DNA of 64,000 nt from a virus (Duplodnaviria; Caudoviricetes), in the IMG/VR virus record IMGVR_UViG_3300027374_000478, positions 95,092-159,091 of that record. One strand, 5' to 3'. Numbering within the stretch: position 1 is the stretch's first letter; every line of letters starts with the position of its first letter. The translations under genes were made by a program, and so were the position numbers. This document shows positions 5,039 to 25,069 of this stretch, piece after piece. The notes below the pieces were generated by a model that was given only the letters and a program-made list of their open reading frames with translations, made no database searches and was not told the DNA's origin.

Positions 5039-5476
5039 ATGGGAGAAACAAGATATCCGTTAGGAGATAAGAAAGTGGTTAGGTTTGGATATGATGACTA
5101 TAGATATGGTTGTTTATGCACATTTCCATTCAATTATCAGGATCATAAATTGAGTATGGGAGATGTGGAGTCTCTTGCTCTTTTAGGGGCTACTTTGTGT
5201 ATGTATAGAAATGGAGGATTACAAAAAGTAGAATATGCTGATAAAGATGAGTATGTTATTCCTGATTGTCTTCCGTTGTGGGTTAGAAATGAAATTAGAA
5301 AAGTATTGGGTGATTATCCAGAAAAGTTTGATAGTGAAGAATATGATGTTGACCATTTGCCAGCATCTATAAATGAAGAGGAGCGCAAAAAAATTCTTTT
5401 AAAGAGATTTAAGGATATAAAAAAGTGGGCGAAAAAATCTATTAAAGAAATAGAAAATGAAGAATATGAGTTGTAG
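5039..5476 (+). CDS. hypothetical protein (single-gene cassette)
   Basis: AAGGAG RBS after site 5002; next site at 5478. Confidence 0.7.
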   Translation: MGETRYPLGDKKVVRFGYDDYRYGCLCTFPFNYQDHKLSMGDVESLALLGATLCMYRNGGLQKVEYADKDEYVIPDCLPLWVRNEIRKVLGDYPEKFDSEEYDVDHLPASINEEERKKILLKRFKDIKKWAKKSIKEIENEEYEL

Positions 5477-5514
5477 ATAAAATTTCCGTTTCAATTGATG
5501 AGAAAGGCGAAAAG

Positions 5515-5805
5515 ATGAAAGTATTAAAAGAGAATAATTTTTCTGGGACATTTCCTATGAAAATAACATGTAAAAGAGTCGTAGATGAATATGGATTTGC
5601 ATATGGAAAGAAAGAAGATTTTTGTGGAAGTGAACTTGAAATTGATTCAGATGATATAAAGAAACATAGGTGGAGCAAGTATCCAGATTATAGTGGAACA
5701 GATTATGGAATTATTTGTCCTGTGTGTGGTCAGTTTATCTCTATTGATGAGAATAAAATACCCAAATATGTTATTGAAAATGTGGAAGAAATTTATATTG
5801 GATGA
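5515..5805 (+). CDS. Zn-binding hypothetical protein (single-gene cassette)
   Basis: CPVCG motif; flanked by sites 5478 and 5803. Confidence 0.7.
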   Translation: MKVLKENNFSGTFPMKITCKRVVDEYGFAYGKKEDFCGSELEIDSDDIKKHRWSKYPDYSGTDYGIICPVCGQFISIDENKIPKYVIENVEEIYIG

Positions 5806-5838
5806 AACGAAGGTTTCAAGTAAAAGTGAGGTGGTAAT

Positions 5839-6162
5839 TTGGAAAATATTTTAAGTAAAAATAATGACGGATCAATAGATGTCATGGACAGATATGGATT
5901 TACGGAATATACAGTTGCCAAGAATGAAAATGGTATAGTAGCTAGATTGGCAAATCAGTTATATGAATATGAGAATTTCTTTACAGAAAGGCTTAAAGAT
6001 GTATTGATGAATTACTTTGATGTTCCATCTGACACATATGCGTATAATCTAACAAGACATAAAACTGCTTTTTCTGAAGGAACCATATCTCTTGATGATT
6101 TTGAAGAATTTGATGAAGAAATCATTGATGATATTGTGAAGTATATCAAAGACAATATTTAG
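5839..6162 (+). CDS. hypothetical protein (single-gene cassette)
   Basis: GAGGTGG RBS, TTG start; flanked by sites 5803 and 6167. Confidence 0.7.
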   Translation: MENILSKNNDGSIDVMDRYGFTEYTVAKNENGIVARLANQLYEYENFFTERLKDVLMNYFDVPSDTYAYNLTRHKTAFSEGTISLDDFEEFDEEIIDDIVKYIKDNI

Positions 6163-6202
6163 CCAATAGAAGAAACATTTTAACTGGAGGTGATGATTTG
6201 GT

Positions 6203-6376
6203 ATGAAGATCGCTATAGAAATACCAAAAGAATATGAAATTGATTTTAAAGCAGATAAATTCAAAGATTTCTTTTCAAGAGTAATAGCAGATATGAATTG
6301 TTTGTGTGGTAATTATGAAACAGAAATAGCACATATGCTAATTAAAGCGTTTAATAATGGAGAAATAATAAAATAG
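6203..6376 (+). CDS. small hypothetical protein
   Basis: GGAGGTG RBS; MKIAIEIPKEYE.. 57 aa (below ORF-track cutoff). Confidence 0.65.
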   Translation: MKIAIEIPKEYEIDFKADKFKDFFSRVIADMNCLCGNYETEIAHMLIKAFNNGEIIK

Positions 6377-9971: not shown

Positions 9972-10670
9972 GTGATTAATATAAATATTGAGCATAATTG
10001 GATAGAAACATTTATAACAGAAAGTAAGAAAAAAGAATTAGAAATAAGAAGGAAAATTGATAAACAAAAAACAATCATGAAAACAATTACTAATGAAGAA
10101 TCTAGCGTTGTGGATGATTTTTGCATGACTTTACAAAGACGTTCTTCGAGTTGGGGTGATTTTATTGTAAGTTTGGATAAAGTAAATGAAGCATTATTAG
10201 CTGGAATACCATTAAGAGAAATAATTTATAACTATTTAGAAAATAAAAAATGTTCAAGTTATGGAGGAGAGAATATGATGGATCATTATGTCGGAGCATT
10301 TAATACAGAAATGTTACCAATTGAAAAAATTTTAACATGTAGAGAGAAAGATATTAGAATTGTAGATGTAAATCTAATTGTGCCAGACAAGGTTGTAGAA
10401 GTTACATTTGCAGATGGAACAAAAGAGAAATCTGTATGTAGAGAACCTGATACATTCAGTTTGGAATCTGCAATTTCTATCTGTATTTCCAAGAAGATTA
10501 TGGGTGGATCATCTGCTTATAATAATGCGATTAGACGTGGTATGAAGGTCTATGAGAAGAAGTTAGAGTATGCAAAGAATAACACAAATCTTCCAGATAA
10601 TCCAGACTACAAGCGGATCAATGAATTTGTAGCAAGTGTGAATGAGAGAGTTGTGAAAGGAGAAGTATGA
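9972..10670 (+). CDS. hypothetical, probably chimeric protein
   Basis: 232-aa ORF with an internal GGAGGAG RBS/ATG near 10275. Confidence 0.6.
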   Translation: MININIEHNWIETFITESKKKELEIRRKIDKQKTIMKTITNEESSVVDDFCMTLQRRSSSWGDFIVSLDKVNEALLAGIPLREIIYNYLENKKCSSYGGENMMDHYVGAFNTEMLPIEKILTCREKDIRIVDVNLIVPDKVVEVTFADGTKEKSVCREPDTFSLESAISICISKKIMGGSSAYNNAIRRGMKVYEKKLEYAKNNTNLPDNPDYKRINEFVASVNERVVKGEV

Positions 10671-11380
10671 AGAGACAGATTAGAAGAAATGTTTTTGAAA
10701 CAAATTCGAGTTCTATGCATAGTTTAACAGTTATGAAGAGAGATGATAAATATACTCCAGAAGAATTTTTAGACGGAATATATTTATGTAAAGACGAAGA
10801 TACAGGCGAGGAATCTTGTGTTTGGGAGCCTTGGGATCACGATTTGGAATTTGGTAGGAGTCCATTTAGGGCTTTGGGAACATTTACAGATAAATGGTTG
10901 TATGCGTGTGCTTCGTTGGTTCATGACTATAATGATGATGTTTATAAAGAACTCGTTGCACTTGCATTGAAATATATACCAGGTCTTAAAAAGATCAAAC
11001 TGCCAATGGACAGTGATAGTATTGCAGATAAAAATGATGAAGAACATAAAAACGATGACTATTATCAGAAGTATGGTAAGACAGAAGATGAACTAAAAGA
11101 ATATTTATCACAGAAAGAAAAGGATTGGGGTTTTGAACTTGAGTATTGGAAATCTTCAAATGGCTGGTGGCATTATGACAAACCATGTACAGGATATGTT
11201 GATGAAGATATTCTAAGTGGATTTTTAGAGCATGAAGGTATTTCTCTTGAAGAATATCTTATAAATAAGAAATATGTCGTCATTCAAGACGGTGATGAAT
11301 ATTGCTATTGGGACAATATGAAGCAAACAGGGCTAGTAAATATGGATATGATTGATCATGAATATCCAAGAGAGGATTAA
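10667..11380 (+). CDS. FETNSSS-motif protein 1
   Basis: N-terminus MKRQIRRNVFETNSSSMHSL. Confidence 0.85.
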   Translation: MKRQIRRNVFETNSSSMHSLTVMKRDDKYTPEEFLDGIYLCKDEDTGEESCVWEPWDHDLEFGRSPFRALGTFTDKWLYACASLVHDYNDDVYKELVALALKYIPGLKKIKLPMDSDSIADKNDEEHKNDDYYQKYGKTEDELKEYLSQKEKDWGFELEYWKSSNGWWHYDKPCTGYVDEDILSGFLEHEGISLEEYLINKKYVVIQDGDEYCYWDNMKQTGLVNMDMIDHEYPRED

Positions 11381-11387
11381 GGGATCA

Positions 11388-11834
11388 ATGAAAAGGAAGA
11401 TTAGAAAAGGTGTATTTGAAACAAATTCGTCTTCGGTTCACAGTTTGGTTATTTCTAATGAGGGCAGGGAACCGAGTGAATTCAAACTGAATAAGGATGG
11501 AGAAATAGAAATTGATTTTGGACAGTTTGGAAAAGACAAACGTATTTATACATCACAATATGACAAACTTTCCTATCTGATTACTTGTTTATATTATCTG
11601 TCAGGATATGATATATCTGATATTTATGACAAGTGGGAATTTAGAGAAATTCAGGATGCTATTTGTAAATATACAGGTGCGACAGGAATTAAGATTTTAG
11701 GAGAACAGGAACCAGAGATTGATCATCAGTCGCAGCCCTATGGCAATATTGAAATTGTCAATGTTTATGATGAGGATGCGGTTATCAATTTTGTATTCAA
11801 TAAGTATGTGTCATTAAAAACAGATTGTGATTAA
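11388..11834 (+). CDS. FETNSSS-motif protein 2
   Basis: N-terminus MKRKIRKGVFETNSSSVHSL. Confidence 0.85.
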   Translation: MKRKIRKGVFETNSSSVHSLVISNEGREPSEFKLNKDGEIEIDFGQFGKDKRIYTSQYDKLSYLITCLYYLSGYDISDIYDKWEFREIQDAICKYTGATGIKILGEQEPEIDHQSQPYGNIEIVNVYDEDAVINFVFNKYVSLKTDCD

Positions 11835-11850
11835 GGAGGAAGTTTATTTT

Positions 11851-12222
11851 ATGAAGAGGGAAGTAAGACGTGGAGTATTCGAGACAAATAGTAGTTCAGT
11901 ACATAGTTTAACAATGTGTTCTGGAGAAGAGTACAAAAAGTGGGAGAACGGCGAAGTATTATATTGGGAAGAGGAAAATAAATTTGGAACCAAAGAAGAA
12001 ATCATTGAAGAAATGAAAAAAATGAAGTGGCATGATGGAACACCACGATATGAAAAGGTTAATTGGGAAAATGAGGATACAGTAGATGATATTTTTTCAG
12101 ATGAAGGAATCAAAACTTGTGAAAAATATTTTGAAAATGATTGGTATGAGACATATGAGAAAAAGTATACCACTCAAAACGGTGAAGAAGTTGTAGCATT
12201 TGGATATTACGGTCACGATTAA
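11851..12222 (+). CDS. FETNSSS-motif protein 3
   Basis: N-terminus MKREVRRGVFETNSSSVHSL; AAGGAGG RBS. Confidence 0.85.
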   Translation: MKREVRRGVFETNSSSVHSLTMCSGEEYKKWENGEVLYWEEENKFGTKEEIIEEMKKMKWHDGTPRYEKVNWENEDTVDDIFSDEGIKTCEKYFENDWYETYEKKYTTQNGEEVVAFGYYGHD

Positions 12223-12228
12223 GAAAGG

Positions 12229-13131
12229 ATGGTAGAAATGAATCTGTTGGGAATTTATAAGAATGGGAATTTTACCACTAAGTTATTCTCAGATGGAACC
12301 AAGATTAGAGAAACAGAAGATGATGAGTTTATCCCTGATTTTGCAGAGAATATGGATATCAAGATAAGTAATTATTGTGATATGGGATGTAATTTCTGTC
12401 ATGAGGGTAGCACAAAGAATGGTAAACATGGAGATATTCTGAACCAGAAGTTTATTGAAACTTTACATCCGTATCAGGAGGTTGCGCTTGGTGGTGGTGA
12501 TGCAACGAGCCATCCAGATCTGATTCCATTTTTACATAAGCTGAAGGATAGGAAAGCCGTTGTAAATATGACCGTAAACCAGCGACACTTTGAACAGAAA
12601 CAGGAATTGATTAAGAAGTTGGTTGATGAAAAACTAATATATGGTCTTGGTGTATCTCTTGTAAATCCAACAGATGAATTTATATCACTAATTCAGCAAT
12701 ATCCAAATGCAGTTATACATGTGATTAACGGTATTCTCAAGCCTTCAGACGTAGAAATGTTATTTGATAAGAATTTGAAGATGCTTATCCTTGGATATAA
12801 GCAGTTAAGGCGTGGTGGTGAATGGTATAGTGAGGATCACGAAAATATCATTATTAAGCAAATGTGGCTGAAAGAAAATCTTGGTGGAATCATTGAGCGT
12901 TTCAAAGTAGTGAGTTTCGATAATCTGGCTATTGATCAGCTTGAAGTTAAGAGATTAATGAGCCAGGAAGAGGGGGATGAGTTTTACATGGGGGATGATG
13001 GCAGCATGACATATTATATTGATATGGTTGAACAGAAATTTGCAAGAAGTTCTACTGCCGATTTTGATAAGAGATATGATTTATTGGACTCTGTAGATGA
13101 AATGTTCAAAAAGATAGTATCTGAACAATAA
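12229..13131 (+). CDS. radical SAM protein
   Basis: CDMGCNFC (CxxxCxxC), ALGGGD. Confidence 0.9.
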   Translation: MVEMNLLGIYKNGNFTTKLFSDGTKIRETEDDEFIPDFAENMDIKISNYCDMGCNFCHEGSTKNGKHGDILNQKFIETLHPYQEVALGGGDATSHPDLIPFLHKLKDRKAVVNMTVNQRHFEQKQELIKKLVDEKLIYGLGVSLVNPTDEFISLIQQYPNAVIHVINGILKPSDVEMLFDKNLKMLILGYKQLRRGGEWYSEDHENIIIKQMWLKENLGGIIERFKVVSFDNLAIDQLEVKRLMSQEEGDEFYMGDDGSMTYYIDMVEQKFARSSTADFDKRYDLLDSVDEMFKKIVSEQ

Positions 13132-20864: not shown

Positions 20865-21083
20865 ATGGATAAGAGGGAAATAGATGGTGTAGAAATTAAT
20901 GGTAAAAGTATTATTACTTCATTAAAAATTATTAAGCAGGTTTGCAAGGACAACCTTAATGAGAAAGGAAATTGTGGTAATTGTCCATTTTTTGTAGACC
21001 AAAGTGATTGCTGTGGAATCGAAAATATGACACCTGATAATTGGAAGATTTTAGAATATACAAAGTTTCAAGCATTAGGATAA
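20865..21083 (+). CDS. small Cys-rich hypothetical protein
   Basis: GGAGG RBS; CGNCPF motif; stop starts site 21081. Confidence 0.7.
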   Translation: MDKREIDGVEINGKSIITSLKIIKQVCKDNLNEKGNCGNCPFFVDQSDCCGIENMTPDNWKILEYTKFQALG

Positions 21084-21115
21084 ATTTTTCATTTCAAAGG
21101 AAGGAGAAACAAGTA

Positions 21116-21358
21116 ATGAAGGTTAATCTACACAGAGTTAATTATGATGGTTCAGAGAATAGTAATGGAAATTGGTGGGTATGGAAAGAGATATGTGATA
21201 AATGTGGAAAAACAGTTTCAGACGAAGATATATTACACTCGTTTCCTGGAGATGAATCAGAATTAGATTTTTGTGTAGATTGTTATCATTATTTATTGGA
21301 TAATGGTATTTCATACGAACAGGCTATTGGTTTGTATGGTAAAAACTCAAACGGTTAA
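21116..21358 (+). CDS. small Zn-finger protein (single-gene cassette)
   Basis: CDKCG..CVDC; flanked by sites 21081 and 21356. Confidence 0.7.
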   Translation: MKVNLHRVNYDGSENSNGNWWVWKEICDKCGKTVSDEDILHSFPGDESELDFCVDCYHYLLDNGISYEQAIGLYGKNSNG

Positions 21359-21403
21359 AACAACTCTTTCATTGGGAAAAATTTAAAGAAATGAGGTCAT
21401 AAA

Positions 21404-22504
21404 ATGATTAAGAAAATTGATAAGAAGAACAAATTTATATCTATGTTTAATCCCAATACAGGATTTTACATGAGAAGTGGAGTTATTGAAGATGGCAAAG
21501 ACACAAGCAAAGATCCTTTTATGACTTCATTTCCAGAATTATTAGACATAGGAGTAATGGGACATTGTGTTCATGGAGACAGTGGTCTATGTATTAAATC
21601 TGGCGTTCAGTGTTATCAGAATGGTTTAAAGACAAAATATCCAAATATGTCTTTTGAAAATTTCAAGAGAATTGTGGACGAGTGTAAGGGTAAAACTTTT
21701 CAGTTTGCTTTAGGTGGTAGAGGTGATGTGGATCAGCATGAAGATTTTGAAAAGATTCTAAGATATAGTAGAGAAAATGGTATCGTGCCAAACTTTACAT
21801 CATCTGGTCTTGGATTTACTGTAGAGATTGTTTCACTTTGTAAAGAGCTTTGTGGAGCTGTTGCAATCAGTTGGTATCGTCAGGAACATACATATAAAGC
21901 AATTCAGATGTTGTTAGACGCAGGAATTAAAACTAATATTCATTATGTGTTAGGTAATAATTCTATTGATGAAGCAATTAAGAGATTAAAAAGCAATGAT
22001 TTCCCTAAAGGCATCAATGCGATAATTTTTTTGTTGCATAAGCCGGTAGGATTAGGGCAGGAAAATAATGTGTTAGATATAGAAGATAAAAGAGTAAGAG
22101 AATTCTTTCATATTATTGATACTCAGCAGTTCGATTTCAAAATTGGTTTTGACTCTTGTACAGTTCCAGCACTTATCAATATGACTTCAAATATAAATGA
22201 GGATAGTTTTGATACTTGTGAAGGTGGTAGATGGTCTGCTTATATTACATCAGATATGAAAATGCTACCTTGTAGCTTTGATAATCAAGATATGAGATGG
22301 GCATATGATATTTCAAATGATACAGTACAGAACGCCTGGAACAGTAAACAGTTTGAGGATTTTAGAGATCATTTTAGAAATTCATGTAGTGGTTGTAGTA
22401 GGCAGTGTGAATGTAGGGGAGGTTGTCCTATTAGAAGACAGATAGTTTTATGTGACAGGAAGGAGAAAGATTTATATGAAAGTACGCAGCGATTTTGTGA
22501 CTAA
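21404..22504 (+). CDS. radical SAM/SPASM domain protein
   Basis: Variant Cys motif CVHG....C......C, ALGGRG, C-terminal CEGG..PC..CSGC.....CRGGCP. Confidence 0.9.
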   Translation: MIKKIDKKNKFISMFNPNTGFYMRSGVIEDGKDTSKDPFMTSFPELLDIGVMGHCVHGDSGLCIKSGVQCYQNGLKTKYPNMSFENFKRIVDECKGKTFQFALGGRGDVDQHEDFEKILRYSRENGIVPNFTSSGLGFTVEIVSLCKELCGAVAISWYRQEHTYKAIQMLLDAGIKTNIHYVLGNNSIDEAIKRLKSNDFPKGINAIIFLLHKPVGLGQENNVLDIEDKRVREFFHIIDTQQFDFKIGFDSCTVPALINMTSNINEDSFDTCEGGRWSAYITSDMKMLPCSFDNQDMRWAYDISNDTVQNAWNSKQFEDFRDHFRNSCSGCSRQCECRGGCPIRRQIVLCDRKEKDLYESTQRFCD

Positions 22505-22814
22505 TTCATCAAGTAGCAGTTTTATAATTGCAAAAAGAGAAAATTGCACTATTGATGAAATAAGAAATAATTTAAATGAGAATAAAGAAAATATTAAATA
22601 CATATTGGAAATGTTTGATATGGATACTGATGGTAAATCAGTTGAAAAATTCATAAATGATTTATCCAATCAGTTATTTAGAGAACCATCAGACTTGCAT
22701 CTTGGAGATTGGATTGCATCAGCAGTTGAATATTGCAATGAAGATGATGAGTTTGGAGCGTTTATGTATGATTATGGATATAAACTTGGCACAGAAAACT
22801 TTAAGGTGGGATAA
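22476..22814 (+). CDS. FVTNSSSS-motif protein 1
   Basis: N-terminus MKVRSDFVTNSSSSSFII. Confidence 0.85.
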   Translation: MKVRSDFVTNSSSSSFIIAKRENCTIDEIRNNLNENKENIKYILEMFDMDTDGKSVEKFINDLSNQLFREPSDLHLGDWIASAVEYCNEDDEFGAFMYDYGYKLGTENFKVG

Positions 22815-22819
22815 AAAAT

Positions 22820-23416
22820 ATGAAGATAAGAACTGATTTTGTTACAAATAGCAGTAGTTCTAGTTTCGTTTGCGAAATATGTGGTCGTACTGAAAGTGGG
22901 TGGGATATGTGTTTGTCAGATACAGAAATGATGGAATGTGTTAATGGTCATACATTTTGTTGTGATGAATCTCTTCCAAAACCTACAAAAGAAGAAATGG
23001 TTAAAATGATTATAGAGAACGAGTGGAACAAAGACGCTTGGAGTTCTGATTTAAAAGACTACAAAGATTATTCGGAAGATGAATTACTTGTAATGGAAGA
23101 AGATGAGTTATGGGGATTTTGCTGTGAAGATAGTGGATGCTATGAAGTTCCTGAGTGTGTATGCCCTATTTGCCAATTTATTGAATACTCAGAATATGAT
23201 CTTAGTGCTTACTTATTAAAGCAATATGGTGTACCCAGAGAGGATGTATTTGCAGAGGTTAAGAAACTGAATAAAAGAAGAAAGAAATTATATGAAAATG
23301 AATATATTACACATGTTTGTAAGCAGTTCAATTTGAATCCAACAGAAATCGTTGCAGGGTGGAAAGAAAAATTTGGTACTTATGAGAAATTTAAAGTGTG
23401 GTTAAATGAAAAATAG
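22820..23416 (+). CDS. FVTNSSSS-motif protein 2 with Cys clusters
   Basis: N-terminus MKIRTDFVTNSSSSSFVCEICG; CVNGHTFC, CPIC. Confidence 0.85.
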   Translation: MKIRTDFVTNSSSSSFVCEICGRTESGWDMCLSDTEMMECVNGHTFCCDESLPKPTKEEMVKMIIENEWNKDAWSSDLKDYKDYSEDELLVMEEDELWGFCCEDSGCYEVPECVCPICQFIEYSEYDLSAYLLKQYGVPREDVFAEVKKLNKRRKKLYENEYITHVCKQFNLNPTEIVAGWKEKFGTYEKFKVWLNEK

Positions 23417-23457
23417 TCTTGAAATTTTGCTTTTATTGGATGAGGAAGGAGGAAATA

Positions 23458-23817
23458 TTGGATAGAGAAAAATTTATTTCTCAGCTACCTATAACTGAGA
23501 AAAATATAGACAAGCAATGGATTATGAGTGTAATGAAACAGTCTGTAGATTCCAATTTACATGATGGTAATCCAAGAGGGCATAGAAACTTAATTATTGT
23601 CATGGAAGAACTCGCTGAGTTAAGTAAAGAAATTTCAAAAGAACTTAGAGGGAAAGGCGATCAATATAATATTCTTGAAGAATTGGCTGATGTGCAGCTT
23701 AGTATTTATTATGTTCAAGAAGTTTGTGGTGTCAACAATGACGACTTACATAAAGCAATGAATATTAAAATGAGAAGACTTGAGGAAGTTTTGAATAAAA
23801 AAGGGAAGTATCAATAA
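23458..23817 (+). CDS. MazG-like nucleotide pyrophosphohydrolase
   Basis: MEELAEL..EELADV motif. Confidence 0.75.
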   Translation: MDREKFISQLPITEKNIDKQWIMSVMKQSVDSNLHDGNPRGHRNLIIVMEELAELSKEISKELRGKGDQYNILEELADVQLSIYYVQEVCGVNNDDLHKAMNIKMRRLEEVLNKKGKYQ

Positions 23818-23893: not shown

Positions 23894-25069
23894 TTGAAAA
23901 TAGCAATTATAGATGCGGATCTGATAGGTAGGGACAAGCACAGGTTTCCTAATCTAGTTTGTATGAAACTATCAGGTTATTATAAAGAACTTGGTGCTGA
24001 AGTTGAATTGAAAATGGATTATGAAGAATTAGCAGCATGTGATAAAGTATTCATTTCCAAAGTGTTTACTGACACACCAATAGATGAAGAGATTTTGAAA
24101 CTTTCAAATGTAGAATATGGCGATACAGGATTCTTTTATGACAAAGCTCCGAAACTTCCTAATGAAGTAGAACATCATATGCCGGATTATAATTTGTATG
24201 ATGAGTGGGTGAATGACAGATTAAACGAAGGTGGTAAGAGAAAGGATTTTACATATTATCTTGATTATTCAATTGGCTTTATGAGTCGTGGATGCATCAG
24301 ACAATGTAGTTTCTGTGTGAATAAGAATTATAAATCATGTGAAGTTCACAGTCATTTATCTGAGTTTCTGGATGAGAGCAGACCATATATCTGTTTGTTG
24401 GATGACAATGTACTGGCTTGCAAGGACTGGAGAAATATATTTGAAGAACTTATTGCGACAGGTAAGAAATTTCAGTTCAAACAAGGTTGTGACGAGAGAC
24501 TTCTTACAGATGAAAAATGTGAGGTTCTGTTTGAGAGATCAAAGTGGATAGGGGACAGGATATTTGCATTTGACAATATTAAAGATAGAGAAGTAATAGA
24601 AAGAAAGTTACAGATGATAAGGAGACACACTAATGATCAGATTAAATTCTATACATTTTGTGCGTACAATCATGATAACATAGGTGTTTATGATGAGGAG
24701 TTTTGGGTTAAGGATATAGAAGATCTGTTTGAGCGAATCAAAATTCTAATGACTTATGGGTGCTTGCCTTATGTAATGAGATTCAAAGATTATGTTCTGA
24801 GTCCATATAAAGGGATTTATATCAATGTTGCGAGTTGGTGTAATCAGCCAAGTCTATTTCGTAAGATGAGTTTTGCTGAGTACAGTATGGCGAGAGGTAT
24901 GAGTAATGAAAACTACAAAAAATATAAAATGGATTTTGATTTATACTTAGCAGATGGCAATAAGAAAGGTTCGTCATGGAGATATTACGAAGAATTCACA
25001 CGCAAATATCCAGAGATTGCAGAGAAGTATTTTCATATGAAGTGGAATTATTCAAATAGGAACAGTTAA
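23894..25069 (+). CDS. radical SAM protein
   Basis: SRGCIRQCSFC, LLDDN; N-terminal FPNLVCMKLS. Confidence 0.85.
   Translation: MKIAIIDADLIGRDKHRFPNLVCMKLSGYYKELGAEVELKMDYEELAACDKVFISKVFTDTPIDEEILKLSNVEYGDTGFFYDKAPKLPNEVEHHMPDYNLYDEWVNDRLNEGGKRKDFTYYLDYSIGFMSRGCIRQCSFCVNKNYKSCEVHSHLSEFLDESRPYICLLDDNVLACKDWRNIFEELIATGKKFQFKQGCDERLLTDEKCEVLFERSKWIGDRIFAFDNIKDREVIERKLQMIRRHTNDQIKFYTFCAYNHDNIGVYDEEFWVKDIEDLFERIKILMTYGCLPYVMRFKDYVLSPYKGIYINVASWCNQPSLFRKMSFAEYSMARGMSNENYKKYKMDFDLYLADGNKKGSSWRYYEEFTRKYPEIAEKYFHMKWNYSNRNS

Follow-up and report, generated by a model that had tools for sequence, protein, structure and literature searches.

A SPASM-type radical SAM enzyme of phages, encoded beside exchangeable small proteins with a common N-terminal tail

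The DNA analyzed here (hereafter, the window) is a stretch of 64,000 nucleotides of virus record IMGVR_UViG_3300027374_000478 (Duplodnaviria; Caudoviricetes), i.e., positions 95,092 to 159,091, with which this provirus record of 159 kb ends. The phage is a prophage of gut bacteria. The window is AT-rich (GC = 31.8%). This study deals with the block 21356-23435, which is filled by three genes of the same direction: an enzyme of the radical S-adenosylmethionine (SAM) type with a C-terminal SPASM domain, and two proteins, tagA and tagB, which have the same N-terminal tag (or tail) and are referred to as client proteins. The features of the block are the following:

21356-21371, + strand: upstream boundary site TAAAACAACTCTTTCA, of the TGAAA-N6-TTTCA type, one mismatch
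21404-22504, + strand: enzyme, radical-SAM-type with C-terminal SPASM, 366 amino acids; CX7CX6C at residues 55-70, ALGGRGD, SPASM Cys set at residues 252-341
22476-22814, + strand: tagA, client protein, 112 amino acids, acidic; N-terminus MKVRSDFVTNSSSSSF
22476-22523, + strand: N-terminal tag of tagA (residues 1-16), with invariant columns in homologues
22820-23416, + strand: tagB, client protein, 198 amino acids, acidic; N-terminus MKIRTDFVTNSSSSSF
22820-22867, + strand: N-terminal tag of tagB (residues 1-16)
23420-23435, + strand: downstream boundary site TGAAATTTTGCTTTTA, of the TGAAA-N6-TTTCA type, one mismatch

An earlier note on this DNA had described a SPASM radical SAM gene followed by two proteins beginning with MK[VI]R[ST]DFVTNSSSSSF, the whole being bracketed by sites at 21356 and 23420. 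All these elements are found where the note placed them, each site having one mismatch to TGAAA-N6-TTTCA. Two corrections must be made: (i) the true start of tagA is the ATG at 22476, within the final 29 bases of the enzyme gene; (ii) the enzyme does not contain the canonical CX3CX2C motif and has CX7CX6C instead. Shine-Dalgarno-like sequences precede all three genes, and no promoter or terminator belonging to the block itself was found. The window contains 27 one-mismatch matches to TGAAA-N6-TTTCA, 12.3 being expected.

With the enzyme as query, 2-6 tagged genes are found next to it in 15 viral loci out of 15 in IMG/VR (59-94% identity). With the tag alone as query (D[FY]VTNSSS), an enzyme of the SPASM type is found at 8 kb or less in 62 of the 73 loci on viral contigs. 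The 11 exceptions comprise six loci with a third dialect of the tag and a different radical SAM enzyme (see below), one locus whose enzyme lies at another place on its 416-kb contig, one cut by the contig end, and three without an enzyme in reach. The same tag-only query in bacterial and archaeal genomes leads to the enzyme in 76 loci out of 80, and in 25 of the 26 that have full flanks. Most bacterial loci are made of two genes, i.e., a tagged protein of 124-127 amino acids (ending with ..LSY), then the enzyme; such loci are found in Lachnospiraceae and other gut Bacillota, as well as bins labelled Gastranaerophilales, Kaiserbacteria and Desulfobacterales. The number of client genes per enzyme gene ranges from 1 to 10, which fits a catalyst with many substrates. 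The tag recurs in 169 fetched loci, and a chance origin is thus excluded.

In Butyrivibrio sp. XPD2006 (L163:4688-12765), a PIF1/RecD-like helicase gene comes after the tag-enzyme pair, whose other neighbours are a MamI-type restriction-modification pair (restriction enzyme plus N6/N4 methylase) and a Schlafen-like helicase. The two-gene form also occurs at about 60 other bacterial loci. No phage structural gene was seen near the bacterial two-gene modules in the two loci examined.

The same phage carries a sister cassette:

10667-13131, + strand: three FETNSSS proteins (10667-11380, 11388-11834, 11851-12222), then a canonical radical SAM enzyme of 300 amino acids (12229-13131)

The earlier note held that the two cassettes differ in gene order and in enzyme subtype, and this is indeed the case: the enzyme leads in the block 21356-23435 while the tags lead in the sister cassette, and an enzyme of 366 amino acids with SPASM is opposed to one of 300 amino acids without SPASM. 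Both enzymes have a common segment before the cluster motif as well as ALGGxGD (E = 0.002), which fits the further proposal of that note, i.e., one system in two subtypes. Judged by their sequences, the two window enzymes are distant members of one group.

The distribution of the tag dialects was obtained with back-translated patterns across 244 fetched loci, 68 of them with the other window enzyme (i.e., that of the sister cassette). D[FY]VTNSSS is present in 169 of the 169 loci that belong to the SPASM enzyme type or its tag, and is absent from all 68 loci of the other enzyme. Conversely, FETNSSS is present in 64 of these 68 loci, always at 2 kb or less upstream of the enzyme, and in none of the remaining 176; the four loci without it begin inside the enzyme gene, the upstream DNA being absent. 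Co-segregation of motif subtype and enzyme clade was a test named beforehand, and it gave zero FETNSSS/DFVTNSSS cross-pairs. Within the SPASM type, a tree of 48 enzymes places the K-type tails (MK[KR]K...SSS[TA]S) in one clade with a support of 97; the K-type labels need two changes, i.e., the minimum, which was matched by 0 of 200 shuffles. This result is consistent rather than strong, because only three rows are K-type.

The third dialect, MK[IF]KxDF[VI]TNSSS[TSC][SA], is found in six viral loci with a different canonical radical SAM enzyme (about 350 amino acids, C-terminal Cys cluster). In these loci (L050, L053, L057, L078, L079, L088), the tagged genes are scattered among genes for SNF2/ResIII helicase, SbcD-like and SbcC-like proteins, and one of them lies directly upstream of the radical SAM gene in five of the six.

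The T4-like phages provide another case. Their enzyme is 28% identical to the window enzyme, has a Cx7Cx2C motif and has no tagged neighbour; the genome encodes two proteins starting with MKIRSGFVSNSSSSSF (GFVSNSSSSSF tails) about 20 kb from it. In GenBank, 173 phage records contain the enzyme and 175 the tagged protein, with near-identical counts per genus, the tagged-protein records including RB16, RB43, Lw1, KP15 and KP27. At the level of these sequence records, this shows that enzyme and tag are kept together without adjacency. The T4-like pairing counts as a single independent confirmation, because it concerns one clade. In NC_028755.1 (L093, L001) the tag and enzyme positions are 66501-66968, 70403-70915 and 91124-92275. 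The carriers are Margaery, RB43, RB16, Lw1, KP15, KP27 and about 170 others, all with these proteins annotated as hypothetical. One of the two tagged proteins ends with SHH and the other with GGGYDG.

In the tagA-type tail, M1, K2, R4, V8, T9, N10 and S11-S14 are invariant among 46 homologues. The codons of the two tag copies of the block differ at nearly every position, e.g., TCA TCA AGT AGC AGT vs. AGC AGT AGT TCT AGT for Ser, and it follows that selection acts on the peptide and not on the DNA. For the same reason, a repeat or a recombination site acting at the DNA level was rejected as an explanation of the tail. In the AlphaFold models of two clients, residues 1-11 are left unplaced (predicted local distance difference test, pLDDT, below 50) though their columns are invariant. 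From these models, the tail looks like a free linear peptide motif and not like an element of the fold. Among the other identities considered for the tail, none (PIN-like, HAD-like, DHH or metallophosphatase N-terminal motifs, a glycyl-radical motif, an N-glycosylation sequon E-T-N-S-S) found support in any search.

The two models come from tagA (42 homologues; 46-sequence alignment) and from a client of the SHH type, i.e., ending with these residues (21-sequence alignment). Their mean pLDDT is 88.7 and 86.5, respectively; in tagA the values fall below 50 at residues 1-4 and 7-11. Both have a common core: a strand (from residue 13), a helical insert, a strand, a helix and a strand. Of the 45 distinct tagged proteins that the window and the first 15 loci encode, all are acidic except two truncated open reading frames (ORFs), and past residue 20 the tagged proteins fall into many subfamilies. 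In the SHH subfamily E151, H167 and H168 are invariant, D140 and H152 nearly so. tagB has 13 Cys arranged in CxxC pairs, resembling zinc ribbons; its orthologues exceed 60% identity in 11 of the 15 related loci and reach 38% in two more, and tagB is the last gene of the array in most of them. Both ends of the tagged proteins appear to be under constraint. Subfamily motifs occur as the last residues of clients in loci L002-L088: [FI][SN]HH, CNHMG, G[AE]GR[ND]G, GYCD and GEGGY.

No named family of Pfam, NCBIfam, PHROGs or PADLOC contains the tagged proteins, and a sequence-profile search of the PDB found nothing. The fold searches with both client models (Foldseek against PDB and BFVD, VIA-align over 48,161 chains) did not rise above chance level: the best matches have a TM score (template modelling) below 0.3, or a Z of 6.6 on a helical hairpin only, and the recurring ClpS rows are not significant. 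In ESM Atlas the tagged proteins, including tagB, match unnamed viral clusters only.

Concerning the enzyme, the Pfam SPASM model matches residues 272-331 (27.9 bits for a cut-off of 21.5, E = 2.8e-6), while TIGR04085 reaches 24.9 bits, slightly below its cut-off of 27. The C-terminal Cys-rich domain that defines the SPASM subgroup (CX9-15GX4C ... CX2CX5CX3C ... C) is present, with C252, C272, C290, C328, C331 and C337 invariant. The PHROGs match is phrog_7293 (1.7e-28), a family without assigned function. The NCBIfam models for GeoRSP, NirJ2, tungsten-cofactor and mycofactocin radical SAM/SPASM proteins align weakly (residues 66-350), far under their cut-offs, and PADLOC-DB gives no match for the enzyme or tagB and only a spurious 14-bit GajB match for tagA. 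The family is large: 4,306 clusters at 90% identity (E<=1e-3) and 1,642 representatives.

The Cys triad C55, C63 and C70 (CX7CX6C) is invariant among the enzyme homologues. In relatives with 35-50% identity the spacing is CX5CX3C or the canonical CX3CX2C, and among the 50%-identity representatives the cluster loop grades from CX3CX2C through CX5CX3C to the long CX7CX6C form. On the basis of this gradation in sequence, the enzyme is taken as a radical SAM derivative having an expanded cluster loop. ALGGRGD takes the position of the GGE-type SAM motif. The Pfam family PF04055 (Radical_SAM) is carried by P0154, a canonical relative with 40% identity, and is precomputed in the homologues bearing an insertion (57-58% identity by BLASTP, about 80% in the alignment). 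The insertion, in P0085, P0108 and P0109, is of about 80 residues and follows the fourth strand region (after ...AISMY); otherwise these proteins are about 80% identical to the window enzyme.

Two homologues (L034:2780-5116 and L051:5139-7499) contain inteins of about 420 amino acids directly before ALGGxGD, with a Cys after ...FQ, an end ...SHN-C and a central region resembling a homing endonuclease. Inteins usually occupy conserved, functionally important sites. In L021:1458-3317, on a contig shared with L014, a GIY-YIG-like homing endonuclease ORF (recognized by eye) continues in frame into the enzyme gene, giving an apparent length of 619 amino acids; it is probably a separate mobile endonuclease gene. 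The long homologues were considered as tag fusions and rejected as such, since they contain inteins or the upstream homing-endonuclease ORF. A search with tagA among longer proteins scored no fused tag-enzyme form, which is weak evidence.

The block seems to be exchanged between genomes. On contigs of relatives with 90-95% identity (mouse-gut libraries from three studies), the match starts at 21359 or 21378 and ends at 23433-23446, i.e., homology starts and ends at the positions of the two boundary sites. In one of these contigs the body of tagA is swapped for 1,191 other letters, the enzyme and both ends of tagB being kept. Some of the libraries are metatranscriptomes, in which DNA can occur; such contigs are therefore no proof of transcription. 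The flanking genes vary among the 15 related viral loci carrying the enzyme and tagged genes, and since the flanks differ from locus to locus the block is considered to move as a unit.

From what the analysis established, i.e., gene linkage, invariance of the tag at the protein level, co-segregation of the dialects and position of the tail outside the predicted fold, we infer binding of the tail by the enzyme, a chemistry and a biological role. On balance, it is somewhat more likely than not that the enzyme modifies the N-terminal tail of its client proteins, the set of which can be swapped. The SPASM-type enzyme would recognize the free tail MK-x-R-x-D-[FY]-V-T-N-S-S-S-S-S-[FY] on changeable small acidic proteins and, by means of a 5'-deoxyadenosyl radical, would alter one residue of the T-N-S-S-S core, which is invariant. 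The reaction could be (i) the oxidation of a serine, in the manner of the anaerobic sulfatase-maturating enzyme (anSME), or (ii) a side-chain cross-link. As the tail is N-terminal, the enzyme could reach it before folding or independently of it. The flanking residues of the tail may act as an address, or dialect, pairing a client with its own enzyme lineage, which would allow two systems side by side in one phage. Once modified, the clients would probably take part in the conflict between phage and host. Three things hint at this without proving it: the cassette is accessory and exchangeable, its clients turn over, and restriction-modification genes lie next to one of the bacterial loci. A larger proposal is put forward tentatively, as a conjecture distinctly less secure than tail modification itself: a widespread phage, and also bacterial, «arming» system would convert a T-N-S-S-S residue into a reactive or cross-linked group (e.g., serine to formylglycine) and thus activate rapidly exchanged small acidic effectors, with enzyme lineages and dialects co-evolving and orthogonal systems coexisting in one genome.

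Several observations weigh against tail modification. PF04055 gives no match in the window enzyme at E<0.1, and given this and the non-canonical Cys spacing, SAM cleavage is assumed. In the tails, neither Pro nor Arg follows the serines, the anSME motif C/S-x-P/A-x-R being absent. No match to the PqqD/RRE family (RRE: recognition element of ribosomally synthesized and post-translationally modified peptides, RiPPs) was obtained in the enzyme or its neighbours by family search, which a cryptic RRE could escape; the enzyme extends at its N-terminus by about 50 residues only. No tagged gene lies within 3-4 kb of P0154, on a contig of 6.7 kb; it must be noticed that the contigs of this relative and of P0232, also canonical, are too short for judging tag linkage. 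The counts of linked loci overstate the number of independent events because many loci are related phages. Finally, E151, H167 and H168 of the SHH subfamily could form, together with the tail, a site with a purpose other than that of a substrate.

Three other explanations were weighed. According to the first to be considered, the tail is a plug or strand that holds the client on the enzyme and itself stays unmodified, the clients being interchangeable adaptor or specificity subunits (for protein, nucleic acid or metabolite targets) or regulators of the enzyme. Dialect co-segregation and an unplaced tail suit binding as well as catalysis, the client bodies are diverse, and the conserved N-terminal segment before the cluster motif, common to both window enzymes, could serve as a docking surface. 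Nevertheless, when five small polar residues in a row (T-N-S-S-S) are invariant across barely alignable enzyme lineages, this is more typical of a reaction site than of a docking strand. An obligate stoichiometric complex is also hard to reconcile with up to 10 clients per enzyme and with the distance of 20 kb between enzyme and client genes in T4-like phages; docking alone is thus held to be unlikely, while deserving consideration.

It is still less likely that the clients are a divergent family of enzymes or ligand-binding proteins, in which the D/T/N/S loop and C-terminal residues (e.g., E-H...S-H-H) bind a metal or small molecule, this cofactor or ligand being the product of the radical SAM enzyme. 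The core common to both client models agrees with this idea, as do the invariant and nearly invariant residues of the SHH subfamily and the conserved C-terminal motifs, which recur even in T4-like phages. On the contrary, tagA, tagB and many subfamilies are devoid of those C-terminal residues, the tail alone being universal; moreover, AlphaFold leaves the tail outside the fold and there is no similarity to a known enzyme fold. As to a sorting, processing or degradation signal read by other machinery (capsid targeting, secretion, degron), for which the T4 capsid-targeting sequences are a precedent, the proximity of the radical SAM gene would be mere linkage in an accessory region. The N-terminal position of the tail at a fixed distance from Met1 and the weak, non-significant ClpS-like fold match of tagA would agree with such a signal. 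It is nonetheless very improbable: tag-only searches recover the enzyme in most loci, including two-gene bacterial modules, and the dialects follow the enzyme lineages without cross-pairs, which linkage alone would not yield.

Tail modification by the enzyme can be compared with known systems. The action of anSME on sulfatases is a precedent for radical SAM maturation of whole proteins. The likeness of anSME/AtsB to the present case concerns a SPASM radical SAM enzyme acting on whole proteins, a Ser or Cys in a short conserved motif near the N-terminal region of the client, and several clients per enzyme. The differences are that the window enzyme scores 13.3 bits with TIGR03942 (cut-off 349) and has the CX7CX6C triad, and that its clients are small acidic phage proteins without known fold, not sulfatases.

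In RiPP systems, the SPASM maturases (PqqE-PqqA, MftC-MftA, SuiB-SuiA, sactisynthases) likewise combine an N-terminal recognition sequence, a SPASM domain, several substrate genes per enzyme and substrates that follow the enzyme lineage. Here the substrates would be folded proteins of 100-260 amino acids (pLDDT 87-89), and the reaction would probably take place in the invariant part, making it more than a leader. Unlike in RiPP systems, no RRE/PqqD-like domain or partner, protease or exporter was found with the cassette. QhpD-QhpC is similar in that a SPASM radical SAM enzyme cross-links residues inside a small protein that functions as a protein; it differs by a single dedicated Cys-rich client, by its role in the biogenesis of a periplasmic enzyme and by the absence of a tag common to unrelated clients.

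In the HXS antiphage system, the radical SAM enzymes HxsB and HxsC mature HxsA, and effector function needs the modification (PMC13128918). The setting is comparable, i.e., radical SAM maturation of a protein effector in phage-host conflict. HXS is a bacterial defence whose target combines His-Xaa-Ser repeats with a peptidoglycan-binding domain, with two enzymes plus HxsD and a periplasmic product, while the present system has one enzyme, an N-terminal TNSSS tail and many unrelated clients, and is mostly phage-encoded. The HxsB and HxsC models do not match the window enzyme, and there are no HxS repeats in tagA or tagB.

The literature searched for the motif strings and for phage SPASM/radical SAM systems contains no description of the motif or of the pairing, and no match in Pfam, NCBIfam, PADLOC or PDB describes the latter. 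The tags occur in phages of gut Bacillota, in jumbo phages and in cultured T4-like phages of E. coli and Klebsiella. If the tail is modified, a very large number of phages would be using a protein modification that is new, and several large «hypothetical» phage protein families would gain a first functional handle. In that case protein labelling, too, could draw on the tail as a short N-terminal tag of natural origin, with enzyme-tag pairs that are orthogonal to one another. RB16, RB43 and Lw1 infect laboratory strains of E. coli, which makes the question directly testable in tractable models.

Two neighbours of the block must be mentioned. Upstream, a small ORF (21041-21358) with a DUF7685 zinc-ribbon match (E = 1.7e-6) stops exactly at the boundary site; it is missing from the related cassette loci. 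Downstream, a third radical SAM gene of the window (23894-25069; phrog_9298, CIRQCSFC) lies two genes away, after a MazG-like pyrophosphohydrolase (23419-23817). Among the 73 tag-derived viral loci, only L074 has a phrog_9298 homologue (5114-6220, directly upstream of the SPASM enzyme), and this gene is therefore not regarded as a regular member of the cassette.

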